From: Bacillota bacterium
GTDB taxonomy: Bacteria; Bacillota; Clostridia; Christensenellales; WQRI01
Length of the DNA stretch: 49,611 nucleotides
Assembly (NCBI GenBank): GCA_009786825.1
Contig: WQRI01000004.1
Coordinates: 1 to 49,611, forward strand
Direction of reading: 5' to 3'
The position numbers and the translations under genes are program-made. The notes under the pieces are model-generated. The model was given only the letters and a program-made list of their open reading frames with translations. It did not search any database and was not told the origin of the DNA. Shown here one piece after another: positions 4,014 through 26,289 of the stretch; within the stretch, counting starts at the first letter, position 1; every line of letters starts with the position of its first letter.

Positions 4014-4100
4014 CGGGTAGCCCCACAAAAGCGGTTTAGCGTGTGGGGCTACCCGCCCGCGTAAGCGGGCGGCTCTCGGCTGTATATTATTACCAGCCGA
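4014..4100 (+). other. Rolling-circle origin 1: three hairpins, the last with a TATTATTAC loop
   Basis: 14-bp stem 4014-4027/4042-4055; stem 4053-4060/4065-4072; stem TCGGCTG 4076-4082/CAGCCGA 4094-4100 with the nonamer at 4085-4093, directly upstream of Rep. Confidence 0.88.
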
Positions 4101-4110
4101 CTATGTACCA

Positions 4111-5241
4111 TTGTACCAAAATTTACACTCTTGGGGGTGCATTTTTAATACTTACAAAAAGGGGGTGAGAACCATTGAAAGCATAGATATTGAAAAAATC
4201 ACAGCAGATATTAATGCTGAACAAAAAGTTGACACTCAAGCGAGAAACTGGTTTTTCACAATTAATAATCCCGAGAATTCAGAAACAGAACTTTACAAAT
4301 ATCTAAGTGAATTAAACTGGGTCAAATATTTTATCTTTGGCAGAGAGAAAGAGACCACCGAACACTATCAAGGCTATATAGAATTCACTAAGCCGATAAG
4401 GTTTAGCCGAATGCAAAAAGATTTTTCTAAGCCTAACATTTTGCCCGGGGCGCACATAGAAGCCCGAAAAGGTAAAAGGGTAGATGCTAGAGACTACATT
4501 CTCAAAATTTGCAGATTTGTAGACAAAGCACACACGCGTATAGGCGAGATTCAAGAATACGGCGAATGGGTAGAAGATGGTCAGCGCACCGACCTTGAAG
4601 ACTTAATTTTAATGGTGGAAGATGGCTTGACCGATTTTGAAATTCGCCAGCAAGTGCCATCATCTATGCTCAGATATCAAACCCATATTACAAGGTATCG
4701 TAACTTATGGCTTAAAGAAAAATACGGGAAGCAGCGCAGATTAGATTTGCAAGTTACCTATATCTACGGCGGAACTGGAACTGGCAAAACAAGGCACATA
4801 ATGGATAAATACGGAGACCAAAATGTGTTTAGGGTAATTGATTACGAGCGCGGCACATTCGATGACTACACAACACAAAATACCGTTGTGTTTGAAGAAT
4901 TTAGGTCTAGTTTAAAAATCACGGATATGCTAAATTATCTAGATGTTTACCCAACGCCGCTAAAAGCCCGCTTTCAAAACAAAATTGCGTGTTTTAATCG
5001 TGTCTACATTCTATCAAACATACCACTTGAAAGCCAATACAAAAATATTCAAACCGATGAACCAGCCACTTGGAACGCATTCAAACGCAGAATACACAAA
5101 GTAGTCAATTGGGATAACAAAACCCACCAACTAAATTTCATAAGCGGTAAAGAATGCCAAAGCACAAAACCAATAATCACAGCAAGCGGAAATATTCTTA
5201 TTCCATTATCCCCAACGGAAGAAGATGAATTACCATTTTAA
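4111..5241 (+). CDS. rep: CRESS/pCRESS-type replication initiator (HUH endonuclease + SF3 helicase); true start probably near 4165-4174
   Basis: Motif I FFTINN, motif II EHYQGYIEF, motif III DYILK, Walker A GGTGTGKT, Walker B VFEEF, motif C ILSN, Arg finger AFKRRI. Confidence 0.92.
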   Translation: MYQNLHSWGCIFNTYKKGVRTIESIDIEKITADINAEQKVDTQARNWFFTINNPENSETELYKYLSELNWVKYFIFGREKETTEHYQGYIEFTKPIRFSRMQKDFSKPNILPGAHIEARKGKRVDARDYILKICRFVDKAHTRIGEIQEYGEWVEDGQRTDLEDLILMVEDGLTDFEIRQQVPSSMLRYQTHITRYRNLWLKEKYGKQRRLDLQVTYIYGGTGTGKTRHIMDKYGDQNVFRVIDYERGTFDDYTTQNTVVFEEFRSSLKITDMLNYLDVYPTPLKARFQNKIACFNRVYILSNIPLESQYKNIQTDEPATWNAFKRRIHKVVNWDNKTHQLNFISGKECQSTKPIITASGNILIPLSPTEEDELPF

Positions 5242-5259
5242 AATTAAAGGAACTGAACT

Positions 5260-5994
5260 ATGGAATTAAATAATATTTATCAAGGCTGTGCTTACGAACT
5301 AATCAAGCAAATACCAACTGCAAGCATAGACCTAATCTATACCGACCCACCTTATTTATACAATATTTGCAAAGAGAAAGCAACAAAAAACAAACTGCAC
5401 GAGAGAGCCAACAAAAGAAAAGAGCAATTAAGCAATATATCAAATGGCTTTGATTACAATATATTTGCAGAGTTTATCAGAGTGCTAAAGCATATTAATA
5501 TTTTTATATGGTGTAGCGAAAAACAAGTCAAAGATATTCTCAATTGGTTTTATGATAGGTACAGCACAAAAGAAATTTATCACAAAATACTTTGCTGGGT
5601 AAAACTAAACCCCGTGCCACTAACAAATTTTGTTTGGCTATCCGACATAGAACTTTGCATTCATTTCAGAGCCTATGGACTACCCCTAAACAACAGCCCA
5701 TTTGACACTAAGCGCAAAGGCTATGTGTCTAACTTAAATGTTTCAGATAAGCAAAAATTCCACCACCCAACTATCAAGCCACTAGCGCTAATCCAAAACC
5801 ACATTCTACATACAACTAAACCAAACGACATAGTATTAGACACTTTTGCAGGCTCTGGAACAACCTTAGTAGCCGCTAAAAACACCAACCGCAATTACAT
5901 AGGTTACGAACTAGACCCCAAATGGTACAACATAGCCAAAAACCGCTTGCAAGGCATTACTGCAAGTGGACAAACAAGTTTTGTTTTGAGTTGA
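5260..5994 (+). CDS. Orphan DNA N6-adenine/N4-cytosine methyltransferase (beta class)
   Basis: Catalytic TDPPY, HPTIKP, SAM-binding LDTFAGSGTT. Confidence 0.92.
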   Translation: MELNNIYQGCAYELIKQIPTASIDLIYTDPPYLYNICKEKATKNKLHERANKRKEQLSNISNGFDYNIFAEFIRVLKHINIFIWCSEKQVKDILNWFYDRYSTKEIYHKILCWVKLNPVPLTNFVWLSDIELCIHFRAYGLPLNNSPFDTKRKGYVSNLNVSDKQKFHHPTIKPLALIQNHILHTTKPNDIVLDTFAGSGTTLVAAKNTNRNYIGYELDPKWYNIAKNRLQGITASGQTSFVLS

Positions 5995-6007
5995 CATAAA
6001 ATGTGGA

Positions 6008-6253
6008 ATGTTAGAAAATTTGTTTGTTGGTTGTGGTGTGAGTAAAGAACTTGAAATAGGTGCTAAGGAATTTGGAATAGATACTAGAGAGTGTGGTGTT
6101 GAGAGTAAACGGATTAAAGAGATAAGTGAGGATAGTGAAATGCAAGAAAAATTTAATAGGCTGCTAAAAATAGGGGTGTATAAAGAGTTGCATAAAAAAG
6201 GTTTGCTTAGTGATAGTCAATTGTCTATGCTGAAAATATATTCATCAAACTAA
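6008..6253 (+). CDS. Small protein with SHOCT-like C-terminus upstream of the LSR; candidate directionality factor/regulator
   Basis: C-terminal LLKIGVYKELHKKGLLSDSQL is conserved in the paralog at 25841-26143, which has the same position. Confidence 0.6.
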   Translation: MLENLFVGCGVSKELEIGAKEFGIDTRECGVESKRIKEISEDSEMQEKFNRLLKIGVYKELHKKGLLSDSQLSMLKIYSSN

Positions 6254-6317
6254 ACGAACTACTCATTTTTTCGGTTGGAATTATGCTGATTTGGGCTTAA
6301 AAAGAGACTAAGAAGAC

Positions 6318-6388
6318 TTTACAATTCTTGCAAAATATGGTATAATATAGACATACACTAAAGTATTTGCAAGGGTTGTTTAGGAGGT
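6318..6388 (+). promoter_or_regulatory. sigmaA promoter, operator-like inverted repeat and RBS of LSR1
   Basis: TTTACA 6318-6323, 17-bp spacer, TGnTATAAT 6341-6346; CTTGCAAAATA...TATTTGCAAG; AGGAGGT; conserved in element 2. Confidence 0.7.
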
Positions 6389-6393
6389 AAAAT

Positions 6394-8073
6394 ATGAAAC
6401 AACTAAGCAATATAGCAATGCCACACGTGCAAACAATACTTGCACACAGGGCTTTAAGTGCAACGCAAGGCAAAATTATAGTCTCACCTTACTGCCGTGT
6501 TTCTACTGATAAGAACGACCAAGCAAATTCTTATGCAAGTCAAATTAGTTATTTCTCTGAATATGTAAATAGGCAAGAAAACTGGGAACTGGGTCAAGTT
6601 TATGCCGATGAAGGACTAAGTGGAACTAGTGTAAAAAAGCGCAAGCAGTTTAATAGAATGATAGAAGATGCTATGCACGGCAAAATTAATCTTATCATAA
6701 CTAAAGAGGTGTCCCGCTTTGCAAGGAATACTGTTGACACTCTAACTTATACTAGAAAACTTAAAGAGCGCGGCGTTGGTGTGTTTTTTGTTAGTGACAA
6801 CATTAATACTATGGACGCCGATGGCGAGTTGCGCTTGACTATTATGGCAAGTTTGGCGCAAGAAGAGAGCCGAAAGACAAGTGAAAGGGTTAAGTGGGGA
6901 CAGAGACGGCAAATGGAAAAAGGTGTTGTATTTGGCAGAGACTTACTAGGCTACACAGTTAAAGAGGGTAAGCTTTCAGTTAATGAGTGCGAGGCGGAAA
7001 TAGTTAAACTAATCTATCACAAATATTTGGTTGAGGGCAAGGGTACTCGGGTTATATCAAGAGAGTTATACGAGGCAGGGATTAAGTCAAAGCGAGTTAA
7101 AGAGTTTTCTAACACAATGATTTTGAAAGTGCTTAAAAATGAAAAGTATGTGGGCGACTTATTGCAAAAGAAAACTTTCACTCCAGATTATCTAACGCAA
7201 AGCAAAAAGGCAAACAAAGGGCAGGAAGACAAAATTTACATAAGAGACAACCACGAGCCTATAATTGAGAGAAATATTTGGGATAGCGTACAGCGCGAAC
7301 TTGAGCGGCGAAGCCCACCGCTAGAGCAAAAACAAAGGCATACAAATAGATACTGGTGTAGTGGCAAATTGTTTTGTGAATGTGGTCAGAGATTTATTAG
7401 CAAGACAAGAAAACTTAAAGGCGGCAAGCACAAGGCTTGGAGGTGCTTAGAGGCGGTTAACAATGGCTCAGAAAAAATCGGCAAATTTGGCGAGAGCATA
7501 GGTTGCGATAGCGGTTCGGTAAATGATAGAACACTACTTGTTTGCGTGGCAAATGCAGTTAAGTATGTGCAAGGCAATACTAGGGCAATAATTAACGAAA
7601 TGCTGTACGAGTTTTCACAAATTCAGTCTGAAAATAAGCCAACCGACACAAGCCAAATTGAAAGCAAAATTGCTATTGTGCAAGACAAAAAACTTAAAAG
7701 CATAGATTTAATGCTGGAAGGGATAATCAGCAAGGAAGCCTTAAAAGCACGACAAGCAGAGTATGAGATAGAAAGAGAGCAACTTGTTAGCAGGCTTCGT
7801 GATATTCAAATTAAAAATAGCCAACTCTCAACTCAAACAAACAACCTAGACACTTACAAAACTGCCCTGAACGAAATTTTAAAATTCACGACCGACACCG
7901 ACTTGCTGTATAGAGAATTGCTAGACAAGATAACAATTTTAAAAGATAAAACTTTGATAATACACTTAAATGCGCTACCCTACGGCATAAAAATTGAATA
8001 CAAAACAACAGGCAAAAACAATAGTTTTACAGCAAATATCCACAGCCTAGAACTAGTAAACCTACCTGCCTAA
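6394..8073 (+). CDS. Large serine recombinase (integrase) 1
   Basis: YCRVST catalytic Ser, YADEGLSGT, KEVSRFARN, LAQEES, recombinase domain, zinc ribbon (CECG...WRC...C), coiled coil. Confidence 0.96.
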   Translation: MKQLSNIAMPHVQTILAHRALSATQGKIIVSPYCRVSTDKNDQANSYASQISYFSEYVNRQENWELGQVYADEGLSGTSVKKRKQFNRMIEDAMHGKINLIITKEVSRFARNTVDTLTYTRKLKERGVGVFFVSDNINTMDADGELRLTIMASLAQEESRKTSERVKWGQRRQMEKGVVFGRDLLGYTVKEGKLSVNECEAEIVKLIYHKYLVEGKGTRVISRELYEAGIKSKRVKEFSNTMILKVLKNEKYVGDLLQKKTFTPDYLTQSKKANKGQEDKIYIRDNHEPIIERNIWDSVQRELERRSPPLEQKQRHTNRYWCSGKLFCECGQRFISKTRKLKGGKHKAWRCLEAVNNGSEKIGKFGESIGCDSGSVNDRTLLVCVANAVKYVQGNTRAIINEMLYEFSQIQSENKPTDTSQIESKIAIVQDKKLKSIDLMLEGIISKEALKARQAEYEIEREQLVSRLRDIQIKNSQLSTQTNNLDTYKTALNEILKFTTDTDLLYRELLDKITILKDKTLIIHLNALPYGIKIEYKTTGKNNSFTANIHSLELVNLPA

Positions 8074-8123
8074 TACGCTAAAACCACCACCCCAAAAAGA
8101 CTAAAATCACCACCCAAAAACCA

Positions 8124-8177
8124 AAATGTGCCTTTTGCTAAACGACGTAGGTACATAGTTACCGAACTTGCACATTT
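8124..8177. other. attP-like (P-P') junction between elements 1 and 2, central GG 8150-8151
   Basis: Outer inverted repeat AAATGTGC/GCACATTT symmetric about GG; left arm aligns with 28078-28103; sequence mimics cotJC codons NDVGT..ELAHLE with a 5-nt insert. Confidence 0.85.
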
Positions 8178-8270
8178 AGAAATAAATAGTTTAGATAAGA
8201 GTAAAAGCATATGAAACAAAAAAATCAAAATTCAAAATTAAAACAACCGCCAAATAAGTTTACATTGTAT

Positions 8271-8317
8271 AAAAAAGAGGCTAGCAGAAAATAAAAAATC
8301 TACGCTAGTCTTTTTTT
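8271..8317. terminator. Hairpin with A-tract and T-tract (bidirectional terminator-like); repeat family copy 1
   Basis: AAAAAAGAGGCTAGC...GCTAGTCTTTTTTT. Confidence 0.6.
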
Positions 8318-8439
8318 ATTAAGCGTAAACAAAAAACTAAAGACATATTCAAGTTTAAACGCTTTGAAATATTAGATGGTCGTGGTATAATTTATAAAGC
8401 AGAAAGAAAATAACGCTGAAAAAGAAAAGGAACAAGATT

Positions 8440-9396
8440 ATGATTTTAAGTGTAAGTAGGCGGACAGATATCCCAGCACTGTATAGTGAATGGTTTTTCG
8501 AGCGGCTTAGGGCAGGGTATTTTTTAGTGCCTAGTCCTTTTATTTTAAACAAGAAAATCGCAAGGGTAAATGTTTCACCAGTTAGAATTGAGCGCAACTT
8601 GTTAGGAGCGATTGACACCAATGCTAAGGGCGAGCAAGCAATTAGCGACAACATAGATGGGATTATGTTTTGGTCTAAAAATCCTGAGCCTATGATTAAG
8701 CGGCTTAGCGAATTGGAGAGTTTAGGTTACAGCAAGTATTGTTTTCTTTTTACGCTCAATCCGTACGGCGCGGAGATTGAGCAAAATGTGCCGCCTCTAA
8801 AAGAGCGAATTGATACTTTTAAGGAATTATCAAGTGCCGTAGGGGCAGATAGAGTTTTTTGGCGGTACGACCCTATTTTGCTCACAAGCGAATACGATGC
8901 AAGTTGGCACATGAATCAGTTCGAGATGCTAGCAACTCAACTTAACGGCTATACTAAAAATTGCAAATTTAGTTTTATTTTAGGCAAGCACCCAAAACTG
9001 CTTGCGCCTACATGTAGCCAGAAAATGCAATTAGCAAAAGCTTTTGCAGATATATCTAAAGCAAATGGCATACTGCTTGAGACTTGTGCGGTGGAAGAGG
9101 AGTTTTCAGACTTAGGCATATCGCAAAGCAAGTGCATAGACCCAGAGTTTTGGGAAGAGTATCTAAACGCAAAACGCAAGTCTAACAAACTTGATGGGCA
9201 AAGAAAAAACTGCTTGTGTATGCCAAGCGTGGATATAGGCATATACAATACTTGCAAGTTAGGTTGCATATATTGTTACGCTAATGGCTTTTACGCAAAC
9301 AGAGGCAAGCCAACCTGCCAAACAAAAACCCCACGAGGCGCCCAACTAGAGAATATTTACGAGCGCAAAATTGAACGGTCGTTTAATTATAGTTAA
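8440..9396 (+). CDS. DUF1848 family protein (Fe-S/radical-SAM-like)
   Basis: N-terminal SVSRRTDIPA.Y.EWF, FWSKNP, WRYDPI, C-terminal C.C..SVDIG.YNTC..GC.YCYAN. Confidence 0.9.
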   Translation: MILSVSRRTDIPALYSEWFFERLRAGYFLVPSPFILNKKIARVNVSPVRIERNLLGAIDTNAKGEQAISDNIDGIMFWSKNPEPMIKRLSELESLGYSKYCFLFTLNPYGAEIEQNVPPLKERIDTFKELSSAVGADRVFWRYDPILLTSEYDASWHMNQFEMLATQLNGYTKNCKFSFILGKHPKLLAPTCSQKMQLAKAFADISKANGILLETCAVEEEFSDLGISQSKCIDPEFWEEYLNAKRKSNKLDGQRKNCLCMPSVDIGIYNTCKLGCIYCYANGFYANRGKPTCQTKTPRGAQLENIYERKIERSFNYS

Positions 9397-9399
9397 AAG

Positions 9400-9449
9400 A
9401 AAAAAAGAGGTTAGCAGAATTCCAAAAATTCACGCTAGCCTCTTTTTTT
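9400..9449. terminator. Terminator hairpin; repeat family copy 2
   Basis: AAAAAAAGAGGTTAGC...GCTAGCCTCTTTTTTT. Confidence 0.7.
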
Positions 9450-9548
9450 GATGGGTTTTTCCAACATAACAAATAGTAAAAAAATGGGTTAAAATAATTT
9501 CTATAAAATACAATTGACTTTTTTATTTTGATTTGGTAAACTATAAAT

Positions 9549-10871
9549 ATGGAAAATAGCGTAATTGAATATAAATTAAAAGTAACTGAAGATATAGAAA
9601 AAACCATCGTTGCATTTTTGAACACGACAGGTGGCAAACTACTTATTGGCGTTGATAAAAATGGAGAAGTAGTAGGTCTTGAGAATGCAGACAAAGACAG
9701 TCTAGCCATTGCAGATAAAATAAGGCAAAATATAATACCTAGTGCAATCGGCTTATTTGATATAAATATTGAAGAGATGTCAAATAAGCACTATATTGTT
9801 GTTAGGGTTGCGGGAGGCATGGAAAAACCATACTATATAAAAAAATATGGGATGTCGCCAAAGGGTTGTTTTGTGCGAATAGGTTCGCAAAGCGTGCCTA
9901 TGGAGCAATCTGCAATAGATAGTCTTTACGCTAAGCGTGCTAAGAACACCTTGAAAAATATAGTAGCACCTAGACAAAACCTAACTTTTTCTATGCTTAA
10001 AATATTTTACAAAGAAAAAGGCATAGATGTAGAGGGCGAACATTTTCTTACAAACTTAGATTTAATTACTCAAGACGGCAAATATAATTATGTTGCTTAC
10101 TTAATGGCAGATAGCAATTCAAGTTCATTCAAAGTAGTTAGATATGAAGGCTTAGATAAAGTGAAAATCTTAAGTAAAAAAGATTATGGAAACACTAGCA
10201 TTCTAGTTGCCACAAAAAACATTTTAGAAAATCTAAATATTTTGAATACTACCACAGTTGAAATCACATATCCTAAGCGCATAGAAACAAGTTTGGTAGA
10301 CCCTGTTGCTCTTCGAGAGGCTGCGCTAAATGCACTTATTCATCACGACTACAGCAAAGGCACAGAGCCAGTTTTTGAGTTTTACGATGATAGGGTTGCT
10401 ATAACATCTTATGGGGGATTACCTATAGGGCTTACGCAAGAGGAGTTTTTTGCTGGGCGTTCATTGCCTAGAAACAGAGAACTTATGCGAATTTTCAAAG
10501 ATATGGAGTATGCAGAAAGTTTAGGTAGCGGAATGAACAGGATAATGAGCATTTACGGCAAAGACAGTTTTGATATCTCAGAAAACTTTTTAAGTGCGGT
10601 ATTTAAGTACGATGATAAAGTCCTTTCTCGTTTGAAAGAAAAAGCAAAAGATAAAGCCATAGAGGCAAAATCCGAGATAAACAAACTGCAAAGTGATATA
10701 TTGCAACTCATAAAAACAAACAATAATCTTTCTGCTAAGCAAATAGCAGAGACTATAGGGAATGCAACTGAAAGGACAATACAAAGAAATCTAGACACAT
10801 TGAAAGAAATAGGCTATATAGAACGTGTTGGCTCTAGAAAAACTGGTTCTTGGAAAATTGTTAGGCAATAA
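9549..10871 (+). CDS. AlbA_2 (Schlafen-like) + HATPase_c_4 + wHTH protein
   Basis: IEYK...IVAFLNTTGGKLLIGVDKNG; REAALNALIHHDY; RNRELMRIF...ESLGSG; C-terminal RNLDTLKEIGYIERVGSRKTGSW. Confidence 0.88.
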   Translation: MENSVIEYKLKVTEDIEKTIVAFLNTTGGKLLIGVDKNGEVVGLENADKDSLAIADKIRQNIIPSAIGLFDINIEEMSNKHYIVVRVAGGMEKPYYIKKYGMSPKGCFVRIGSQSVPMEQSAIDSLYAKRAKNTLKNIVAPRQNLTFSMLKIFYKEKGIDVEGEHFLTNLDLITQDGKYNYVAYLMADSNSSSFKVVRYEGLDKVKILSKKDYGNTSILVATKNILENLNILNTTTVEITYPKRIETSLVDPVALREAALNALIHHDYSKGTEPVFEFYDDRVAITSYGGLPIGLTQEEFFAGRSLPRNRELMRIFKDMEYAESLGSGMNRIMSIYGKDSFDISENFLSAVFKYDDKVLSRLKEKAKDKAIEAKSEINKLQSDILQLIKTNNNLSAKQIAETIGNATERTIQRNLDTLKEIGYIERVGSRKTGSWKIVRQ

Positions 10872-10926
10872 ATGTCGTAATAAATGTCGTAATAAATGTC
10901 GTAATAAATGTCGTAGTAAGTATCGT
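10867..10926 (+). repeat. 12-bp tandem repeat AATAAATGTCGT x4 plus one degenerate copy
   Basis: Read directly from the sequence. Confidence 0.95.
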
Positions 10927-11138
10927 AAAAATGGAACAAGACAATTAAAAAATAGCAATAGAATATTCAAACAATTAAAGGCACTTGAACAAATCAAAAT
11001 TGAAATGTCTCAAGTGCCCTTATTAATTGCGAACAACTAAAGCAATTAGGCATAACTTAGATAAACTTAAGCGAGAAGGGTTATTAATCAGGCACGGCGG
11101 TTGCTAGGGGCGGACATTGGGAAGTGGTAGAAAAGTAA
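10927..11138 (+). pseudogene. Decayed second wHTH C-terminus of an AlbA_2-family paralog
   Basis: AIRHNLDKLKREGLLIRHGG / frameshift / RGGHWEVVEK* mirrors the C-terminus of the upstream gene. Confidence 0.65.
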
Positions 11139-11208
11139 ATGCTAATTACATTATTTGGAATAAACATACACCGCTTGCTTTAAACCAAAGTCTTATGAGT
11201 GCTATTTG

Positions 11209-15437: not shown

Positions 15438-18400
15438 TTGTACATAAGGAAACACATTATGTCAAATTATAAAGAGTATTTTAATATCGAAGACAAGCAA
15501 GCTGTTATGGACAAGGCTCAGTTTGAGAAAAATCCACAACTCGTGACAAACTTTTACCCTCATAAAGATTTTGTGAAATTGCTTGAAGATACACAAAAGG
15601 TTTTGTCTAGACAAGAAAAGAAGTCGATATGGATAGAGGGTGTTTATGGCACGGGGAAAACTCACGCTGTGTTGACGCTTCAAAACTTGCTTGATTGCAA
15701 TGAGGCTGAGCTAGTTAGCTATTTTGATAGCTTTCAGCAAAATTTGAGTAAAGAGCTAAAAGACAAATATGTTAGACTAAAACAAACTATCAAAATTTTG
15801 ACTGCTTTTAAGTCGGGTGATAGCGGGCTACACACTCAGGACGATTTGATTCCAGCTTTACAGATGACAATATCCAAGAGGCTTAAGGAAAAGGGGCTGA
15901 TAGAAGCGGAAGGTGCACTAAAAGAAGCGGGGGTAAGATGGTTAAAAGATGCAACAAACGCTAAAATATTTCAAACACTTATAGATGAAGATGTTGATAA
16001 AACCTTTACTAATCCAAATACAGTAGAAGGCATTTTGAAAGTGCTTGAAAGCGAAGATGAAGATGCTATTTTAGGTATGGTGCAAAAGTGTTCCATATTA
16101 GCAAAAAACAGAAATATTGATTTGTTTACTCCAAACTTAGAAGAATTTAAGGCGTGGGTAAATAAAGTTATTGAGGTTAACAAATTAACCGCACTTGTCT
16201 TTTTTTGGGATGAACTAACTAAGTTTTTTGAAAACTCAACAAGCTTAGTTGTTTTTCAAGAAATTGCACAAATGTCTATGTTAGACTCTCCTTTCATTTT
16301 AATACCTGTCACGCACAGTATTGACGAGAAAGTTCTAGGTGATTCTAAAAGTGCAGAAAGTAAGAAAATAAGAGATAGATTTATTGTTAGAAGCTTAGCA
16401 CTCTCAAGCAATATAGCTATTGAGCTTATGGCTAATGCTTTACGGAAAAACGAAGCAAGAAAGTCAGAGTGGGAAGGGGTTGAAAACACGCTTAATGATA
16501 GGGTTGACAAGGTAAGAAAGATTGTGGCTAACTCAATCAAAGCAAAAGAAGAACATATTAGAGGCGTGTTGCCTATTCATCCATACTCAACATTAGTGTT
16601 AAAGCATTTAGCAAAAGAGGTAGCCTCAAATCAAAGAAGCATATTTACTTTTATAGCAGACAACGAAGATAAGAGAAGTTTCAAGTATTTTCTAGCAAAC
16701 AACAAGCCACACATGCTGCTAACAGTACCTCATCTATGGCATTTCTTTTATGAGGGAGTTTCTTTAAACAACACAACAACTAGAAGCGTAATGCAAGCAT
16801 TTAACAATGCTAAAATATCAAAACTAAACGATAAAGAGCAAATGGTTTTGAAAGCGATTTTGCTTTTAATTGCCACAAGTAAAAGCTTAATGGATAGCGA
16901 TGAGTTGCTTTTGCCAACAGAAGACAACTTGCGACTTGTTTTTGAAGGTTGTGAAGTTATAACAGTAAACAACGCAGTAAATATAGCCAATAGCTTGTTG
17001 AAAGACAACTACATTTTAACTAAAACACAAAGCGGAAAAACAAAATACGATGTATCTTCAGACCATATAGATACAAGCAGACTAAAAGAAGAAAAAGAAA
17101 AAATTTCTTTATCAACTAAAGAGCTAGCAGAAGATGCGGAGCTAGGAAATATTCTTGCTTACAAAAAGCCTTTAGAGTTGAGGTTTGACACTAAGATGTC
17201 AAGCGTTAATGATTTTTCTAGAGAAGTTGGTGCGTTGAACAACTCTAGCCCAGCAAGCAATAAAATTTATGTTAGGTTTTGTATTGCTTCTAGCCAAATC
17301 GAAGCAAATAAAGTAAGAGAAAAAATAGCAGAAGCTAGCAAAAATATAAAAGGCAGTAACCTTGACTTTGTCTTGGTTGACGCATCTCGAGCATTTTTAA
17401 GCGACCAAGATAGAGAAGAATATAAAACATATAAAGCACGAGAAAATATACTTCGAGATAGTAATAGGGCGGATAGTCAAAACTACGCAAGGCAAGCGAA
17501 TCAGGTATTGAACAGGTGGAAAGATAGTTTTAAAAAAGAAAAGTTCGTTTTGCATATTTTAAGTGAAGGTAGACAAATCGAAGCAACAGGTTTGGCAGAA
17601 GTTTTAGAACAACTTTACAAACTTAATGCAAGACTTTATCCGTATGCGCCAGAAAACATCGGAAGTTTTGTTGATACGCTATTTCCAATTAACAACAGGA
17701 GGCAGGCGGCAGATTTAGGTATTTTGGAGGACAGAGCAAAGCCAACAGGAGCGTTTTCGGGCGGCAAAACACAAATTGCATCAACCTTAGATGGTGCTTG
17801 GATGGTGTCTGATTATTGGGTATATAGACCCGAACTACCTATTTCAAAAATCAAAAAGGAAGTTGACCTGTTTATTGAAAATTCGCAGTCTAACACAAGG
17901 GAAGTGTCTTTGAATGCATTAATGGAGCATCTTTCGCAAAAACCTTATGGCTTTTTAGGGCATTCAATTTCGGCTTTCTTTTTAGGGTTTTTGCTAAAAG
18001 AATATGCAAGAGAGGAAGGTTATACATACAGGTTTGGCGATGTAGATGAACCGTTAACTGAGAGCAACTTACAAACTGCTATTGTGACAGCAATAGAAAA
18101 CATAAGCCAAGCAGAATTAAAAAAGAAGCCCATTTACATAGGCAAGCAAAGCGAGCAAGCAAATGCATTTGCAGAAAAATCTCAAATAATTTTTAACCTA
18201 AGAGATTTAAGTTTGTCTGTTGCAAAAGTTAGAGAAAATCTAAGGCAAAAAATGCAAGACTTTGTGTTTCCGCTATGGGCATTAAAAGAGTCGGGCAGCT
18301 TTCCGAAACAAGTAGAAAACATTCTAGACATGTATATAGGAATTTTAAACACTCGTAATTTTGAAAGTGGCACAGACACAGAGTATAATATAGCAAGCAA

Positions 18401-19619
18401 AATAGGGCAAAAATTTATTTCACAACCAAGTATTGTTGGCGACTTGAAAAATTTGATTGAGCAAGAAAACTTCAACAACGGTATGCGAGCTGTTGTGATG
18501 AGCTACAAAGAAGGTGAGTTAAGCAAACTTGCAACAAGCTTAGGTTACAATTATCTAGAACTTCTTATGCAGAGTTTTAAGCAAGATGCAGGGAGCTGGG
18601 CGTGGGACAAAGAGACAGGTCTTAGCCAAGTAAAAAGCTTGATAGAGTGGTTAGAGTTAGTTCAAGTTTCTAAGGTAGTGGGTGTTCAAGTATCAAAGAC
18701 TGAAGGCTCTGCCAAAAATGCACTAGTAGATAGTTGGAGAATTGAACTGGAGGCATTTAAAGTGCCTAGTGAAATATTAAAAGATTTTGAGGTTGACACA
18801 GTACTTCTAGATAGCTTGAAGGAAATGTATGTTCAACGAACGATACACCATTCAAGTAAATTTTTAGAATTACTAAAGGCTCACAAGGATAAGCTAAAAG
18901 ACTTGCTAGCACACAAAGCAAGTTATTTCAACAAGTTTTTGACTGCACAATTCACACGAATATCTGCACAAGAGCAAAATGCAATTTACGACAAAGCGCA
19001 CCAAGGACAATTTGCAAAGGACAAGGACAGCTATATGGCTCATATTTCGCAAATTGTGACGGAACACGCACAAGATTCAGGCAGGGAAAAGCTGCGAGCT
19101 ATATGGTTTGACAAAACAGGAAGTAATACCCCAAGAGAGTGGTCAAGCAAAAGCCAAACGCCAGCGTTGATATTTTGTGGTGTAGAAGAGATAAGCAAGG
19201 CGAAGAGGTCTTTCGGTATAATCAATGGAAATTTAATCCAACCATCAGGCAAAGATATTGAAGAAGGATTACAATTTTTGAGTTCTCTAGACTGGTTGTG
19301 CAAACTTAGCGACAAGAGTTTTGTCGATAGTAAGTTTGGAGAGGTAATCATTGGCAGGTATATAGGCTTGGTAGGTGTTAACGAGGCTAGAAAATATCTT
19401 TCAGATAAACTAATAGAGCACCCATATGACTGGTTTGATAGTAAACAAGTTCAAGACAAAGTGCGTGAAATTGCAGAAGTGAACTATAAAAAAGATGGTA
19501 TCAGTAGAGCAATAGAAGCAGTTGACCGAATTGGCGACCCACAAAAGCTAAGAGACTATATTAAACGACTAATTAAAGATAGCTTAGATGTTGGCATTCA
19601 GATTATGAAAGAAGAGTAA
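15438..19619 (+). CDS. brxC: BrxC/PglY-like large ATPase (likely start ATG 15459)
   Basis: Walker A GVYGTGKT, Walker B FFWDE, LPIHPYS and SNQRSIF motifs; operon position. Confidence 0.8.
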   Translation: MYIRKHIMSNYKEYFNIEDKQAVMDKAQFEKNPQLVTNFYPHKDFVKLLEDTQKVLSRQEKKSIWIEGVYGTGKTHAVLTLQNLLDCNEAELVSYFDSFQQNLSKELKDKYVRLKQTIKILTAFKSGDSGLHTQDDLIPALQMTISKRLKEKGLIEAEGALKEAGVRWLKDATNAKIFQTLIDEDVDKTFTNPNTVEGILKVLESEDEDAILGMVQKCSILAKNRNIDLFTPNLEEFKAWVNKVIEVNKLTALVFFWDELTKFFENSTSLVVFQEIAQMSMLDSPFILIPVTHSIDEKVLGDSKSAESKKIRDRFIVRSLALSSNIAIELMANALRKNEARKSEWEGVENTLNDRVDKVRKIVANSIKAKEEHIRGVLPIHPYSTLVLKHLAKEVASNQRSIFTFIADNEDKRSFKYFLANNKPHMLLTVPHLWHFFYEGVSLNNTTTRSVMQAFNNAKISKLNDKEQMVLKAILLLIATSKSLMDSDELLLPTEDNLRLVFEGCEVITVNNAVNIANSLLKDNYILTKTQSGKTKYDVSSDHIDTSRLKEEKEKISLSTKELAEDAELGNILAYKKPLELRFDTKMSSVNDFSREVGALNNSSPASNKIYVRFCIASSQIEANKVREKIAEASKNIKGSNLDFVLVDASRAFLSDQDREEYKTYKARENILRDSNRADSQNYARQANQVLNRWKDSFKKEKFVLHILSEGRQIEATGLAEVLEQLYKLNARLYPYAPENIGSFVDTLFPINNRRQAADLGILEDRAKPTGAFSGGKTQIASTLDGAWMVSDYWVYRPELPISKIKKEVDLFIENSQSNTREVSLNALMEHLSQKPYGFLGHSISAFFLGFLLKEYAREEGYTYRFGDVDEPLTESNLQTAIVTAIENISQAELKKKPIYIGKQSEQANAFAEKSQIIFNLRDLSLSVAKVRENLRQKMQDFVFPLWALKESGSFPKQVENILDMYIGILNTRNFESGTDTEYNIASKIGQKFISQPSIVGDLKNLIEQENFNNGMRAVVMSYKEGELSKLATSLGYNYLELLMQSFKQDAGSWAWDKETGLSQVKSLIEWLELVQVSKVVGVQVSKTEGSAKNALVDSWRIELEAFKVPSEILKDFEVDTVLLDSLKEMYVQRTIHHSSKFLELLKAHKDKLKDLLAHKASYFNKFLTAQFTRISAQEQNAIYDKAHQGQFAKDKDSYMAHISQIVTEHAQDSGREKLRAIWFDKTGSNTPREWSSKSQTPALIFCGVEEISKAKRSFGIINGNLIQPSGKDIEEGLQFLSSLDWLCKLSDKSFVDSKFGEVIIGRYIGLVGVNEARKYLSDKLIEHPYDWFDSKQVQDKVREIAEVNYKKDGISRAIEAVDRIGDPQKLRDYIKRLIKDSLDVGIQIMKEE

Positions 19620-19668
19620 CCTAACAACCGCTGGCATAAGTTGTTATACCTTAAAGCAAGAGAAAAAT

Positions 19669-21765
19669 ATGGTAAGTAAAAGTTATAAAAGCCTAGAGCA
19701 AGCAACAAAGATTATAAGTGGAGCTTCAAACAAAACTCCATTTATAGTCAATGTAAACAGCAGCGAGCAGTACAAGGAAGTGTACTCAAAGTTTAAACAC
19801 CTTGAGACTATTAGGCTTTCTTCTTATATAGTTGCCGACAACCCGCACCCTTGTTTGCAAAACTTGAATAGTGCAGTTAGTAATAGTGCAAAGCCTGCTC
19901 TAGTATTGGGGTTTACACAATACCTTGCGTTTATTGGAAAAGAAAAGCCAATAGAAGACTTTTTGATAAAAACGATAAATGAAACCAACAAGATTATAAT
20001 ACTTACTTTTAATCTAGAAAACTTGCTTGTGAAGTTAGCAAAAGACCCACGCATCGAAAAGAACATCTTATTTATAGAAAGTAGTCGGGCAGTAGAGCAT
20101 CCTAAGATAACAATTTCACAAGGTGCAAAAGACTCACTAAGAATTTTTTTTGAAACCTTAGAAACTGAGGGTTTGCATATTGGGCGAGTGAATGATGTAG
20201 ACGTGAAATCTTTCAAAGACGGCATATGGTCTGTACGGGCAGAATCAAATTATGATATACTTATTAATTCAGGCATATTTGCGGGAGTTTCTGTTGAAGA
20301 AGAGTTTGGAACTAATGAGCAGTGGGAGTTTTTAAACGGGCTACTGAGTAATAAGCATGGCACAAGCACTCTACAAAGTGCTTATCTTTCACTTTTTGTC
20401 AAACAGACTATAGAGAGCATACTTAAAAATTACGATAAACTTGATAGTGACCAAAAGTGGTTTCTGTGGCTGTGTAGTAGGCACGCTACTGAAAACAAAT
20501 ACTTGTCTTTTGCTTTAGAAAAAACAAAATGTAGCACTGACTTTTTACCTAGTATATATGAAGCAATCTTAGATGTGAACTTCAAGGACAAACGGTTCGC
20601 GGGCTTCTACAAGGAAAGAAAAGAGTTGCTTTGCGCTCTTATTAAGAGTAAAGACCACATAAAGCTTTTGAAGAGTTACATAGAGCAAGTAGTCGCAATG
20701 AGTTCGGCAGATAAGGCATACTACTTAACAGACTTAACGCCAACAGAGAGGGAAACGCTTATAAGAACAATAGTGGAAAACAGATATAGCCCTACAGACT
20801 TGCGTAAAATTTTGTCTCATGCTGATAGCAAGCTTTCTGCATATATGAGTTCGTGGACAAGCGATAATGAGCAAATCGATAATTATGTAAGCGCTTACTT
20901 TGACGAGGGCGGATACAAGTACCACAAACTGACGAACCAAGTAACAAACAACTTCTTACAGACTGTAGACTCGAACGCAAGAGAAAGGCAGTATAATAAA
21001 TTGCTTGACACTACAGCACAGGTTTTTTCATCAATAAACAAAGACAAGTCTAAGGTTTATTTTATAGACTCACTAGGATTTGAGTTTGTTGGATATATTG
21101 TAAACAGAACTAGCGAGTTGGGGATAGATTCAAAAGTTACACCAGCAAGGTGCAACTTGCCATCCAGTACAGAGTTCAACAAGCAGTTTTTGAGTGATTA
21201 CAAAGTGGGTGAAAAGAATTATGTAGAGAAGGAATACTTAGACAAACTTAAGCACGGCAAAAACAAGGATGCAACTTTTAGTAAAACAGACTTGCCGATA
21301 CACTTACTGTCCGAACTAGATATAATTGACAAAATAATTGAAAATATAGCAAGAGATTTAGCTAGTTCGAGTTTTGATAAAGTCTTAATTGTTACAGACC
21401 ACGGTTCATCAAGATTGTTTGTGCTTGCTAGAAATAGTGGTGTTTCAAGTCTGGTTGTACAAGCTTCTGGTGGAAGCGGTAGATTTTTGACGCATGATAC
21501 ATATAAAATTTTAAACATAAATGAGTCTCATAAGGCAAGTATAACAATCGAAGACGAGCATGCGATAATAGCGAGCTATAACTATTTTAACAAGCAGTCC
21601 CTAGGAGTTGAAGCCCACGGTGGGGCTACGGTTGAAGAGGTTGTTGTTCCTGTGATTGAGTTTACACTACAAAAAGCAGTCTCATTGCATACACAAATAA
21701 AGAAAGAAGACAAGCAGCCAAAAGGAGAGAAGTCGGCTGCTAAGATAGTGGATCTAGGTATTTAA
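19669..21765 (+). CDS. pglZ: BREX-4 PglZ phosphatase-fold protein
   Basis: FIDSLG, LPSSTEFN, LDKLKH, VTDHGSSR, HGGATVEEVVVP. Confidence 0.9.
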   Translation: MVSKSYKSLEQATKIISGASNKTPFIVNVNSSEQYKEVYSKFKHLETIRLSSYIVADNPHPCLQNLNSAVSNSAKPALVLGFTQYLAFIGKEKPIEDFLIKTINETNKIIILTFNLENLLVKLAKDPRIEKNILFIESSRAVEHPKITISQGAKDSLRIFFETLETEGLHIGRVNDVDVKSFKDGIWSVRAESNYDILINSGIFAGVSVEEEFGTNEQWEFLNGLLSNKHGTSTLQSAYLSLFVKQTIESILKNYDKLDSDQKWFLWLCSRHATENKYLSFALEKTKCSTDFLPSIYEAILDVNFKDKRFAGFYKERKELLCALIKSKDHIKLLKSYIEQVVAMSSADKAYYLTDLTPTERETLIRTIVENRYSPTDLRKILSHADSKLSAYMSSWTSDNEQIDNYVSAYFDEGGYKYHKLTNQVTNNFLQTVDSNARERQYNKLLDTTAQVFSSINKDKSKVYFIDSLGFEFVGYIVNRTSELGIDSKVTPARCNLPSSTEFNKQFLSDYKVGEKNYVEKEYLDKLKHGKNKDATFSKTDLPIHLLSELDIIDKIIENIARDLASSSFDKVLIVTDHGSSRLFVLARNSGVSSLVVQASGGSGRFLTHDTYKILNINESHKASITIEDEHAIIASYNYFNKQSLGVEAHGGATVEEVVVPVIEFTLQKAVSLHTQIKKEDKQPKGEKSAAKIVDLGI

Positions 21766-21792
21766 AAGTATTATAATAGGAGTTAGAGCGAC

Positions 21793-23265
21793 ATGGGCGA
21801 AGCAATAATTACACTTGAAAAAAAACTGAAGGATAGTTTTCCAGAAATGGTAGTTTATAAAGACCTTAAAAAGTCAAACTTTTTTAATTCTTTAACACTA
21901 CCTAGCTTTATGCGAGACTGGCTAATAAAACGTTTTCAAGCGGAAGACGGGTTTTTGGGTGAAGAGCAAATTGAAAATATACGCAACTTTATTGATACAT
22001 ATATTCCTAGAACAAAACAAGACTGGAATAAAATCAAGAGCAGAATAATTAACGAATCAGAGAGGGTTAAGATTTTAGCCAAGATAAGTGTAGATATAGA
22101 TATAAAAACAGGGTGGCGTTTTTTTACCCTTTCTGACTTCGGGCTAGGTAAGGCAGACACTGGTATCCCAAATAATGTATGGTATGATTTTTCCGATGAC
22201 TTTTTAGCGGCAAACGAGATTTGGGGTATAGTTGAATTGGCGTATTTGCCAAAAGACTATTCGGAAGATAAAAAAGGCAAGATAATAATTACAGACTTTA
22301 AAAAGTTTTGTCCATATCAAATAGACCTCAACTTTTACAAAGAGGCACGGAAAAACTTCACGATAGATGAGTGGTTTGATGTTTTGTTGGGTGCAATAGA
22401 TTACAACCCAAGCGGGTATAAGGAAAGAGTTCATAAGCGCACAATGCTTTCTCGATTACTGCCATTTGTTGAAAAGCGATTAAACTTAGTTGAGTTAGCC
22501 CCGAAAGGAACAGGAAAATCGTATGTGTTTGAAAGACTATCAAGGTTTGGCTATTTGGTAGGTGGGGGTAAACTCTCACGAGCTAAGTTGTTTTATGATA
22601 GGTCAAAAAAATCAAGGGGATTAATATTTTCTAATGACTTTGTAGCGTTAGATGAAATTCAAACCATATCAGCAAGTGATCCAAATGATATTAGAAGTGC
22701 GTTAAAAACATATATGGAAAGTGGGCAGTACAGCGGCGATGACTTTAGAGGTGTCGCAGATGCAGGAATTATACTATTAGGAAATATTGAATCAAGAAAT
22801 ATGGACGAGTACACGGATTTATTTTTTGAACTACCAAACCTATTTAAAGAAAGCGCGCTGATTGACCGCTTCCACGGATTTATAATGGGGTGGAATATTC
22901 CTAGAATGAACGATGATTTAAAGATGAATGGATTTGCCCTTAACTCAGAATACTTTACTTCAATAATGAATTTACTCAGAGATGATATAACTTATAGGCA
23001 AATTGTGGATGAAATAATCGAAGTGCCTAAGCACGCAGACACAAGGGATACAGAGGCGATTAAAAGAACAGCAACAGCATTTTTGAAGTTATTTTTCCCA
23101 AATGTTCAGTCTCCTAGCGGTATAGTTGCACACGAATTTGAAGAATATTGTTTGCGCCCCGCGTCAAAAATGCGTGAGATTATCAAATACCAAATGGGGA
23201 AGTTAGATGATGAATTTAAAGGGAAAGATATTCCCAACTTGTTATTAAAGGAAAAATTTAGATAG
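21793..23265 (+). CDS. brxL: BrxL-like AAA+ protein without the Lon protease domain
   Basis: RLLPFVE, ELAPKGTGKS, VALDEIQ, SALIDRFHG..GW, RDTEAIKR. Confidence 0.9.
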   Translation: MGEAIITLEKKLKDSFPEMVVYKDLKKSNFFNSLTLPSFMRDWLIKRFQAEDGFLGEEQIENIRNFIDTYIPRTKQDWNKIKSRIINESERVKILAKISVDIDIKTGWRFFTLSDFGLGKADTGIPNNVWYDFSDDFLAANEIWGIVELAYLPKDYSEDKKGKIIITDFKKFCPYQIDLNFYKEARKNFTIDEWFDVLLGAIDYNPSGYKERVHKRTMLSRLLPFVEKRLNLVELAPKGTGKSYVFERLSRFGYLVGGGKLSRAKLFYDRSKKSRGLIFSNDFVALDEIQTISASDPNDIRSALKTYMESGQYSGDDFRGVADAGIILLGNIESRNMDEYTDLFFELPNLFKESALIDRFHGFIMGWNIPRMNDDLKMNGFALNSEYFTSIMNLLRDDITYRQIVDEIIEVPKHADTRDTEAIKRTATAFLKLFFPNVQSPSGIVAHEFEEYCLRPASKMREIIKYQMGKLDDEFKGKDIPNLLLKEKFR

Positions 23266-23275
23266 AGAGGAGAAA

Positions 23276-23482
23276 ATGTCTAAGCCGATTGTTAAATGTT
23301 TTTCGTGCAGGATGCACCCAATTTCTAAAGATGAGTTGTCAATATGTAAAAAAATGTTAGGCAGAAAAACAGAGAATTATTTTTGCTTAACTTGCTTGGC
23401 AGATTTTTTACACGTTGCAGAAGAAGACATTTTAGATAAGATTGAGCAGTTTAAAGGAGAAGGGTGTGTTTTGTTCAAGTAA
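23276..23482 (+). CDS. Small Cys-rich (CxxC...CxxC...GCxLF) protein closing the BREX operon
   Basis: GAGGAG RBS, 10 bp after the brxL stop, six Cys in 68 aa. Confidence 0.75.
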   Translation: MSKPIVKCFSCRMHPISKDELSICKKMLGRKTENYFCLTCLADFLHVAEEDILDKIEQFKGEGCVLFK

Positions 23483-23559
23483 TTTTTATGGTTATGAATT
23501 AGGTCATAAAAAAGTAGATGGCGAAGGTTAGCAGCAAAACACAAAAAATACAAACAACA

Positions 23560-23596
23560 AAAAAAGAAAGGTTTAAATAAATGACCTTTCTTTTTT
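23560..23596 (+). terminator. Terminator after the BREX operon
   Basis: AAAAAAGAAAGGT / ACCTTTCTTTTTT inverted repeat. Confidence 0.7.
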
Positions 23597-23628
23597 GTTT
23601 TATCATTTGTATGACATAGCAGTTAGCC

Positions 23629-24162
23629 AGTAGAATATAGTAGGGGGCTATTTTTTCTATTAAAAAGTTTGTTGAAATGGCACTTATGTTGTCAAAAATT
23701 CCGTAAGTTTTTATGTTGCTGGACTATTAGAAAGGGGGGAGTTTTTTTATTAAGCAAAAGTTATTTGAAAAACTTTTCAAAAAGGGGGTTGACTTTTGGC
23801 GTTTTCGTGGCTTTATTATAGAGGGGTATTTTTTTCGCAGGGGATAAGCGACAAAAATTATTAAAAAAGTTTTGAAAAAAACCTAACCAAACAGCGTTTT
23901 TCGTGGCTATATATAGAGGGGTTTTTAAAAAATAGTTGTTGGTGCTTACTTATATTAGGCTTTATTGCGGTAGTAGAATATAGTAGGGGGATAAAAAAAG
24001 ATTAGCGAATTGTTAGAAATTTTGTAAGGTTGGTTGTGTGAGAGGGCAGTTTCAAGGTAAGCAGTAGTAAGGGGATTTTGTCATATTAGCAGTATGCAAA
24101 TAAAAACTTTTTGTAAAAGTGGTTGCCAAAGTGCCATTCTCGTGGCTTTTATATAGAGGGGT
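23629..24162 (+). repeat. Non-coding array of dispersed direct repeats ending in G-runs
   Basis: TCGTGGCT(W)nTATAGAGGGGT at 23805, 23901, 24140; AGTAGAATATAGTAGGGGG at 23629 and 23972. Confidence 0.85.
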
Positions 24163-24300
24163 TTTTCTAACCACTTTTAAAATCTAGGTTAGCAGGAGGG
24201 AGAAATGAAAACAAAAGGTTTACATAGTGCAAACAATAATAGCGCATTTAAAGCGGAAACAAGCGACTATACAAACGAAAAAACCTGCTAGGCGGATAAA

Positions 24301-24394
24301 GCGGAAGCCACGCATATAGCGGTTTAGCGGTGCGTGGCTTCCGCCGCCGTAGGCGGCGGAATTGGCTAATGTTTTTATTATTACCATTAGCCAA
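24301..24394 (+). other. Rolling-circle origin 2: three hairpins, the last with a TATTATTAC loop
   Basis: 14-bp stem 24301-24314/24331-24344; stem 24340-24348/24352-24360; 10-bp stem 24362-24371/24385-24394 with the nonamer at 24376-24384. Confidence 0.88.
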
Positions 24395-26284: not shown

Positions 26285-26289
26285 AAAAT

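Follow-up and report, generated by a model that had tools for sequence, protein, structure and literature searches.

The stretch of DNA analysed here, called the window throughout, is the whole of contig WQRI01000004.1 (49,611 nt; designated C4). It belongs to a 1.7-Mb metagenome-assembled genome of a Bacillota bacterium of the order Christensenellales (GCA_009786825.1), which is 86% complete. Contigs C6, C41, C7, C25 and C8 of the same genome are also referred to. The window carries two co-oriented putative replication origins, ori1 and ori2, 20,291 nt apart. Each precedes a gene for a replication protein (Rep) of the type found in CRESS DNA viruses, which have circular single-stranded genomes that code for a Rep. 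Bacteriophage exclusion (BREX) defence genes lie between the origins. The 20,291-nt interval is best read as the repeat period of an array of two related but distinct mobile elements, E1 and E2, inserted in the spore-coat gene cotJC. The order is attL(B-P'1), E1, attX(P1-P'2), E2 and attR(P2-B'), where att denotes an attachment site. A confidence of about 0.7 was assigned to this reading as a whole, namely a tandem array of two related elements of which E2 is non-autonomous. The features are listed in Table 1.

Table 1. Genes, predicted origins and attachment sites of the window.
Feature	Position	Strand	Remarks
Big_2 (immunoglobulin-like) surface protein, 3' end	2-259	+	C-terminal membrane anchor; frame continues from C41:14429-15193 (Big_2 domain)
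orf447	275-1618	+	Signal-peptide-like N terminus, C-terminal anchor; candidate pIII-like virion/adsorption protein
orf747	1735-3978	+	About 5 N-terminal membrane segments and P-loop ATPase; candidate pI/Zot-like morphogenesis ATPase
ori1 hairpins A and B	A 4017-4052, B 4053-4072	+	Predicted by folding; candidate single-strand origin or packaging signal
ori1 hairpin C	4076-4100	+	Perfect 7-bp stem, loop TATATTATTAC; predicted nick after 4092
Rep1, intact	4111-5241	+	PF02407 HUH nuclease (E 5e-14) and putative superfamily 3 helicase
DNA methyltransferase N6/N4	5260-5994	+	PF01555 (E 9e-28); PADLOC MTase_II; E1 only
Small hydrophilic open reading frame (ORF)	6008-6253	+	67% identical to 25841-26143; no hydrophobic segment
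Large serine recombinase LSR1, intact	6394-8073	+	Resolvase (E 7e-33), Recombinase (E 1e-22); phrog_95 integrase
attX	8123-8178	.	E1 P arm, central GG (8150-8151), E2 P' arm
DUF1848 protein	8440-9396	+	E2 cargo
Schlafen/AlbA_2-HATPase-winged helix-turn-helix protein	9549-10871	+	E2 cargo
453-aa ORF	11595-12956	+	Upstream of BREX genes; no Pfam, PHROG or PADLOC match
BrxP	13033-15414	+	PADLOC 1.7e-212
BrxC	15438-19619	+	PADLOC 1.9e-146
PglZ	19669-21765	+	PADLOC 1.6e-48
BrxL	21793-23265	+	PADLOC 7.3e-203
Non-coding stretch	23600-24170	+	A 35-65-nt unit occurs three times and a 22-nt unit twice
ori2 hairpins A and B	A 24301-24344, B 24345-24358	+	Hairpin A: ori1 loop motif on a different stem
ori2 hairpin C	24362-24394	+	Perfect 10-bp stem, loop TTTTTATTATTAC; predicted nick after 24382
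Rep2, split	24584-25743	+	Nuclease part 24584-25219, helicase part 25156-25743
Small ORF of E2	25841-26143	+	Homolog of 6008-6253
LSR2, full length	26313-27965	+	GTG start; aligned to LSR1; Resolvase and Recombinase domains
attR	28077-28132	.	E2 P arm, central GG (28104-28105), B' arm inside cotJC
cotJC 3' part (Mn-catalase family)	28080-28517	+	PF05067 model positions 52-198; C-terminal two thirds of CotJC

Structure of the array in cotJC

E1 and E2 have a common backbone. It comprises a hairpin resembling a single-strand origin (sso) and a stem-loop origin with the nonanucleotide TATTATT^AC, then the genes for a CRESS-type Rep and a large serine recombinase (LSR) with a small ORF between them, and an att arm. 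When the two elements were compared by self-BLAST, the Rep genes were 70% identical at the nucleotide level. The small ORF and the first two thirds of the LSR were 84% identical. At the protein level the identity was 64-73% for Rep and 72% for the LSR. The methyltransferase of E1 had no counterpart in E2. The 84% tract (5953-7513 against 25786-27414) looks like a recombination or gene-conversion tract. Beyond it the C-terminal part of the recombinase was barely alignable. The small ORF may be a recombination directionality factor or a regulator, and no family was found for it in Pfam or PHROG searches.

LSR2 aligned with LSR1 from end to end over 550 aa with no stop, and its RVST serine motif was retained. 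A preliminary description of this DNA had taken LSR2 to be frameshifted and under relaxed selection, which release between the origins was to explain. The gene is intact, leaving no relaxed selection on it to be explained.

The arms of the att sites paired within elements. The left arm of attX formed an inverted repeat with the right arm of attL on C6 (P1 and P'1, 22/27 positions). Its right arm formed one with the left arm of attR at 28077-28103 (P2 and P'2, 23/27). The two arms of attX matched each other at 17/27 positions (P1 and P'2), and cross-element matches were 17-19/27. attX is therefore a hybrid marking the junction of E1 and E2. It had been described as an attP-geometry site at 8124-8177; the geometry was found there, but the site is not a native attP. 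An independent Logan contig ran from LSR1 through attX to 8679, from which the junction was judged to be real. Another covered 23898-25824, so that the continuity of the array is reproduced in a separate assembly. As both elements share attX, neither has a canonical attL/attR pair.

From GG to GG, E2 measures 19,954 bp (8152-28103 of the window). E1 is about 30 kb, with its left part on C6 and C41 and its right part in the window. The contig order is the reverse complement of C6, then C41, then C4. The ends overlap by 71-75 nt (75 nt between C41 and C4) and open frames run across both joins, making this chain likely but not certain. The 5' part of cotJC was found at C6:7149-7337 (PF05067 positions 1-64; the N-terminal 63 residues) together with cotJB and cotJA. 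At 28077-28120 the sequence of the E2 P arm resembles that of cotJC as far as the crossover and provides an ATG, so that a 145-aa CotJC frame, truncated at the N terminus, stays open at attR. Formation of the array by homologous recombination of two circles followed by integration was considered and rejected, since this would leave a native attP in the middle of the array, which is not what is seen.

Origins and replication proteins

The nonanucleotide TATTATTAC has just two copies in the whole window, at 4085-4093 and 24376-24384, each on the plus strand. The copy count is within chance, as two or more copies were present in 25 of 100 shuffled sequences. The significance of the origins lies in their context, meaning the stem loop, the hairpins upstream and the Rep gene. 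The two copies are placed at the 3' side of the loop of hairpin C, 18 nt (ori1) and 200 nt (ori2) upstream of paralogous PF02407 Rep genes. Folding as single-stranded DNA gave three hairpins at each site, with energies of -30.6 kcal/mol (z -6.1) for ori1 and -33.8 kcal/mol (z -7.6) for ori2. None of 200 shuffles was as stable.

The same arrangement was found across the Rep family. A stem-loop with NANTATTAC at the 3' side of its loop, at most 700 nt upstream of the Rep, was found for 69 of the 80 Rep starts examined in genome loci. In IMG/VR it preceded the Rep in 64 of 73 loci, a count that skipped three Reps too near a contig end. The stem sequences were unrelated among all these origins. 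From this family-wide pattern and from their context the two sites are considered genuine CRESS-type double-strand origins. The preliminary description of two co-oriented origins 20,291 nt apart was confirmed. At CRESS-type origins the nick falls after the seventh nucleotide (T7) of the nonanucleotide. By analogy the same position would be nicked here.

The loop of hairpin A at ori1 contains GCGGTTTAGC and TAGCGT, a hallmark of ssoA. When the hairpin A regions were folded one by one, GCGGTTTAGC was common to ori1, ori2 and two termite-gut genomes (L016 and L080) only, in each case on a different stem. TAGCGT lay inside the loop in ori1 and L016. PMC4598088 gives TAGCGT as the CS-6 consensus of ssoA single-strand origins. 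Hairpin A is accordingly named here as a candidate complementary-strand origin or packaging signal. Scans for the loop motif together with TATTAC returned at least 119 metagenome stretches and seven viral ones. These were judged to be chance matches, as none of the 128 loci examined has a Rep, LSR or orf447 homolog.

Short tandem direct repeats were observed directly 3' of each stem-loop. They comprise two 8-mers at ori1 (4103-4118) and two to three 5-mers at ori2 (24404-24419), and they differ between the two origins. L016 and L080 have the same design with repeats of their own. These repeats are candidate iterons that would set Rep specificity. Repeated origins were also seen elsewhere. An IMG/VR sequence of 8,825 nt (L242) carries two co-oriented Rep copies with identical origins at a period of about 5.6 kb. 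A genome contig of 7,376 nt (L045) carries four, also with identical origins, at a period of about 1.8 kb. Each may be either a true tandem array or a concatemer assembled from small circles.

The alignment of Rep1 and Rep2 showed the motifs FTINN, HYQGYIEF, YILK and GGTG(T/K)GKT, the last being GGTGTGKT in Rep1. Matches to PF00910 were weak and below the curated cut-off for both Rep1 (E 0.0037) and the C-terminal part of Rep2 (E 0.001). Homologs of these Reps bear a precomputed PF00910 match. The N-terminal part of Rep2 matched PF02407 with an E value of 3.5e-16. Rep2 is split by a single frameshift near 25150 and retains every catalytic motif. The independent contig over 23898-25824 had 0 differences from the window, so the frameshift is not an error peculiar to this assembly. 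On this point the preliminary description was borne out. The 211-aa Rep2 fragment forms its own protein cluster, found on three contigs.

A search of about 5.8 billion proteins gave 506 matches to the Rep family. With an alignment-based search, 134 loci with the family were confirmed in species-representative genomes, mostly of Clostridia. A single-sequence search of genome contigs with Rep1 gave 64 pattern matches, of which 0 were confirmed. At the level of the order, a Rep was found in 10 of 200 other genomes with identities of at most 48%. The closest Rep in IMG/VR was 52% identical (L290), on a partial sequence that contains N.

Filamentous-phage-like genes of E1 and defence genes of E2

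Directly upstream of ori1 are three genes, those for the immunoglobulin-like protein, orf447 and orf747. Hydrophobic segments were found at residues 1-19 and 407-444 of orf447. Walker A and B motifs were seen in the translation of orf747. Residues 290-747 of orf747 were modelled (predicted local distance difference test score, pLDDT, 79) and the model was compared with 48,161 solved chains. The top match was 2r2a, the Zot N-terminal domain (Z 10.3, 165/191 residues aligned). Leads from Atlas and BFVD also point to Zot. A Foldseek search against the PDB found nothing at E <= 0.001. Neither Pfam nor PHROG placed the immunoglobulin-like protein, orf447 or orf747 in a family.

Relatives of these genes keep similar company. 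Paralogs of orf447 were found on C7 and C25 and homologs in two termite-gut genomes (L016 and L017), with synteny to orf747 and Rep kept. In three termite-gut genomes (L016, L017 and L080) orf447 and/or orf747 adjoin a Rep of the Rep1 family. One of these, L016, also has a single-stranded DNA-binding protein and a serine recombinase. On C7 and C25 of the present genome a further orf447-orf747 pair is followed in each case by a small membrane protein and an ORF2/G2P-family Rep. An IMG/VR contig (L095) has the same arrangement, with the pair followed by a REP_ORF2-G2P Rep. Five of six small IMG/VR genomes examined, one of them circular and 5.4 kb long, have a Pfam Zot gene directly upstream of the origin and a Rep1-family Rep. 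Bajarodino virus 56 (GenBank PQ006124.1; Inoviridae, circular, 5,709 nt) encodes Zot and a Rep that is 40.8% identical to Rep1 over 81% of its length. The gene order of E1, with candidate adsorption and pI proteins, origin and Rep, matches that of recognised inoviruses with a Rep1-family Rep.

E1 is thus probably a filamentous-phage-like prophage with a CRESS-type Rep, an assignment that is carried more by gene context than by the fold of orf747. The assembly genes ascribed to E1 in the preliminary description were recovered as a filamentous-phage-like module, both through the Zot-like structural match and through the context of relatives.

The modules on C7 (28000-42391) and C25 (1-14000) combine Big_2 proteins with homologs of orf447 and orf747, a small membrane protein of two segments and a Rep of the REP_ORF2-G2P type, with an additional rve integrase on C7. 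In total, three such modules are present in the 1.7-Mb genome. Inside E1, a siphovirus-type tail cluster was observed at C41:1300-11135 and C6:440-1156. It encodes a major tail protein and tape-measure-like, fibre and collagen-like proteins and has no head, portal or terminase genes. Possible readings of it are a prophage remnant and a tailocin-like cargo. Just inside attL on C6 is a homolog (46% identity) of the AlbA_2 protein of E2, at the same relative position.

All the defence genes, together with ori2, Rep2 and LSR2, are held in the E2 unit. BrxP, BrxC, PglZ and BrxL are adjacent in that order (13033-23265), a gene set reported to be that of type 4 BREX by Goldfarb et al. 2015. Gene calls agree with the preliminary description in placing an intact Rep1, the methyltransferase, the small ORF, LSR1 and the defence genes between the origins. 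The island is not without an owner. From its position it belongs to E2, a complete serine-recombinase unit with att arms of its own. Homologs of orf447 and orf747 were not found in E2. Lacking a morphogenesis module and having a Rep2 split by a frameshift, E2 is a relative of E1 that most likely is not autonomous, whether as a satellite or as an integrated plasmid.

In the non-coding stretch between BrxL and ori2, the 35-65-nt unit ends ...TTTCGTGGCT(4-6 nt)TATAGAGGGG. Such units could be taken for repeated promoters or for small RNA genes. A promoter scan of 23200-24700 was at chance level and no Rfam match was found in the non-coding stretch. A partial copy (180 aa, 87% identical) of the DUF1848 protein of E2 is present on C8 (16972-17511).

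Several observations weigh against the array as interpreted here. Canonical serine-recombinase chemistry, in which attP reacts with attB only, does not account for a P1-P'2 junction. The origin of such a site needs integration into attL or attR, or a reaction between two attP sites. Serine integrases are not known to allow either of these. The 71-nt repeat that carries the C6-C41 link recurs at C6:1646, making the size of E1 uncertain. No close relative of E2 was found for comparison, as a family-level genome search returned this genome alone. Rep2 may still work as two polypeptides, in which case E2 would be autonomous for replication. The siphovirus-type tail cluster is odd cargo for a filamentous phage. 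The Zot match of orf747 is tied with RecA-like and conjugative-coupling ATPases (Z 8.1-10.1; 10.1 for the RecA-like match), and orf747 was without a match in Pfam, PHROGs and a PDB profile search. An ORF of at least 30 aa for a small membrane major coat protein was not found in C41:12000-14440, the one region searched, where the sole candidate with a membrane segment was an overlapping 33-aa frame.

The points on orf747 and the coat protein also favour an account in which no virions are made. Both elements would then be integrated plasmids of the pCRESS type or decaying relics. Their serine recombinases would excise the array in the mother cell and restore cotJC, and the origins would be irrelevant to the spread of the cargo. 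Kazlauskas et al. 2019 (PMC6668415) place most bacterial CRESS-like Reps in elements that are integrated site-specifically and have no known structural genes of viruses. The insertion splits the coat gene cotJC and leaves its neighbours cotJA and cotJB intact. Elements that interrupt sporulation genes and are excised in sporulation are widespread according to PMC5595907. The broken Rep2 also fits this account. It is opposed by the Rep1-family Reps found beside Pfam Zot in IMG/VR and in a GenBank inovirus, and by the recurrence of the orf447-orf747 module with G2P-type Reps. Strong, covarying three-hairpin structures are kept at both origins, as seen in sequences folded singly, and Rep1, LSR1 and LSR2 are all intact. 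On balance this account was considered improbable.

Proposed origin-to-origin release and comparison with known systems

The preferred explanation remains an array of a filamentous-phage-like E1 and a dependent E2. The elements would replicate by the rolling-circle mode from a nick after T7 of the nonanucleotide. E1-type filaments would package DNA. For packaging, and perhaps for Rep function too, E2 would need a helper of the E1 type. As a by-product, the array is predicted to give run-through from ori1 to ori2, which would be the only rolling-circle product of the integrated array without excision, as there is no second ori1 downstream.

A stronger role for this product was proposed in the preliminary description. 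Rep1 would nick ori1, copy rightwards and stop at ori2, giving a single-stranded circle of 20.3 kb. The circle would be packaged by the E1 genes, insert into cotJC in a new host and so serve as a self-sufficient vehicle for BREX. It would contain Rep1, the methyltransferase, the small ORF, LSR1, attX and the E2 cargo. The premises of this model, namely the origins, Rep1, the assembly module and the precedents, all held. The data gave no support for the event itself.

The anatomy is in keeping with release in several respects. The two origins point the same way and have the same nonanucleotide, and Rep1 is intact, unlike the frameshifted Rep2. The circle would retain the sso-like hairpins A and B of ori2, which are upstream of the nick. 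The shared attX bars canonical attL x attR excision of each element. Rep1 may not initiate at ori2, since the iteron-like repeats differ, and run-through would then be the only Rep1-driven copying of the cargo. Judging from the biochemistry of CRESS Reps, termination at ori2 should need little more than the nonanucleotide. Two precedents were found. According to PMC4439123, free CTXphi phage DNA arises between tandem copies of the prophage by a process akin to rolling-circle replication, in line with the preliminary description. For geminiviruses, PMC4955380, citing Stenger et al. 1991, describes how Rep supplied in trans releases the DNA between two origins and closes it into a circle.

Against this stand the properties of the circle. 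The hybrid origin, made of the left arm of ori2 and the right arm of ori1, folded at -2.2 kcal/mol with the nonanucleotide not in the loop, compared with -6.6 and -8.3 kcal/mol for the native hairpins. Re-initiation on a released circle is doubtful given this weak fold. The att site of the circle would be the P1-P'2 hybrid, with arms matching at 17/27 compared with 22-23/27 in native pairs. With an origin stem that is mismatched and an att site that is hybrid, the claim of self-sufficiency is doubtful. The argument from relaxed selection also falls, LSR2 being intact.

Public sequence data were compared over 8000-27999 of the window. One public run had the sequence, a termite-gut metagenome available as contigs only, which is probably the source sample. 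Mean contig depth was 31.7 for LSR1-attX, 31 for the cargo, 28.4 for ori2-Rep2 and 30.1 from LSR2 to the host flank. This flat depth is no sign of amplification, and the raised coverage expected over the cargo was not seen; contig depth is coarse and contigs drop rare variants. No joint at ori2 (24382) was listed in the contigs of the run, and no loose end was found there among the six listed of 42. The only listed joint that goes back, from 27235 to 8000, is no circle junction but the LSR1 contig cross-mapping on LSR2. A 30-mer spanning the hybrid junction had 0 exact matches in metagenome_contigs, a collection from which records near this genome may be missing. The depth, joint and 30-mer results neither support nor refute a rare or induced event.

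Formation of run-through molecules when Rep1 is expressed was considered conceivable though somewhat less probable than their absence. That such molecules are a working transmissible unit was considered unlikely, and the self-sufficient vehicle was given the same low standing. A related idea was held to be equally speculative. Here E2 would be a BREX-carrying satellite of a CRESS-Rep filamentous phage, travelling by ori1-to-ori2 run-through across the heterologous array, and each passage would swap a helper Rep-recombinase module onto the satellite cargo. If this were true, such tandem arrays would shuffle modules, and a defence island of 20 kb would need no excision to spread, in filaments, as single-stranded DNA.

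A close parallel is CTXphi/RS1 of Vibrio cholerae. It shares tandem co-oriented rolling-circle origins of integrated filamentous-phage elements with an HUH Rep, and a satellite without morphogenesis genes that rides on a helper. It differs in that CTXphi integrates through the host XerCD and cannot excise, whereas each element here has its own LSR. The Rep here is of the CRESS type with a helicase domain, the two origins differ in their stems and iteron-like repeats, and the present array is known from sequence alone. Geminivirus replicational release shares its class of Rep with the present system, and its origins are likewise stem-loops whose nonanucleotide ends in TATTAC (PMC4955380). The origins there are identical, so that the rejoined origin is intact, whereas the rejoined stem here is mismatched. 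Those constructs were also engineered and the virus is eukaryotic.

The pCRESS plasmids of Kazlauskas et al. 2019 resemble the present elements in having bacterial nuclease-helicase Reps, mostly in site-specifically integrated elements. According to that paper (PMC6668415) none of its elements has homologs of known viral structural proteins, whereas E1 has a Zot-like module. Bajarodino virus 56 and five IMG/VR genomes (L238, L242, L245, L247 and L254) are small filamentous-phage genomes in which Zot is followed by the origin stem-loop and a Rep1-family Rep. Unlike E1 they are 5-9 kb long and lack a serine recombinase and cargo. Pfam recognises their Zot but not orf747, which in addition has a long membrane domain at its N terminus. 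The sporulation-gene intervening elements skin, SPbeta and gin are likewise LSR insertions in a sporulation gene expressed in the mother cell. They differ from the present case, in which two tandem elements carry rolling-circle origins. Among the papers listed on such elements, none gave cotJC as a target. The BREX genes have the order BrxP, BrxC, PglZ and BrxL as in type 4 systems, but are carried here on a rolling-circle, serine-recombinase element with a 453-aa ORF of no known family upstream.

Some parts of this picture are already known. Filamentous phages with a Rep1-family Rep are in public records. Inovirus replication modules are exchanged freely according to PMC6668415. PMC6813254 reports serine recombinases in inoviruses and describes tandem inovirus prophages as common, with 800 predictions having several pI genes. 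What is new is the combination. It consists of a tandem array of heterologous elements in cotJC with a hybrid att site as its joint, a member of 20 kb with type 4 BREX and other defence genes in place of the morphogenesis module, and the prediction of a module-swapping run-through. In a limited literature search, which is no proof of absence from print, no paper joining inovirus and BREX was found.

If the array works as its anatomy suggests, it would link filamentous phages, large defence islands and CRESS-type Reps, three subjects mostly treated separately; the bacterial relatives of these Reps have been described from plasmids and as lacking virion genes. With a BREX island of 20 kb on a rolling-circle, serine-recombinase backbone beside a filamentous-phage-like helper, defence systems would then have a new route of spread in gut Bacillota. 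The heterologous array also offers a natural test of whether a CRESS-type Rep terminates at a foreign origin that has only the nonanucleotide in common with its own. Should the elements be merely two integrated plasmids, they would still be a clean case of two serine-recombinase elements stacked in one sporulation gene, with a hybrid att site outside the canonical rules.

Rfam predicted two tRNAs only in the window, and none between the origins. Beside the tRNA gene at 37504-37575 and upstream of a RhuM-family gene (38859-39860), two pairs of direct repeats about 1 kb apart were observed. These were 37752-37834 and 38749-38831 (84.5% identity over 84 nt), and 38240-38284 and 38852-38896 (95.6% over 45 nt). 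They may be the att scar of another integrated element.

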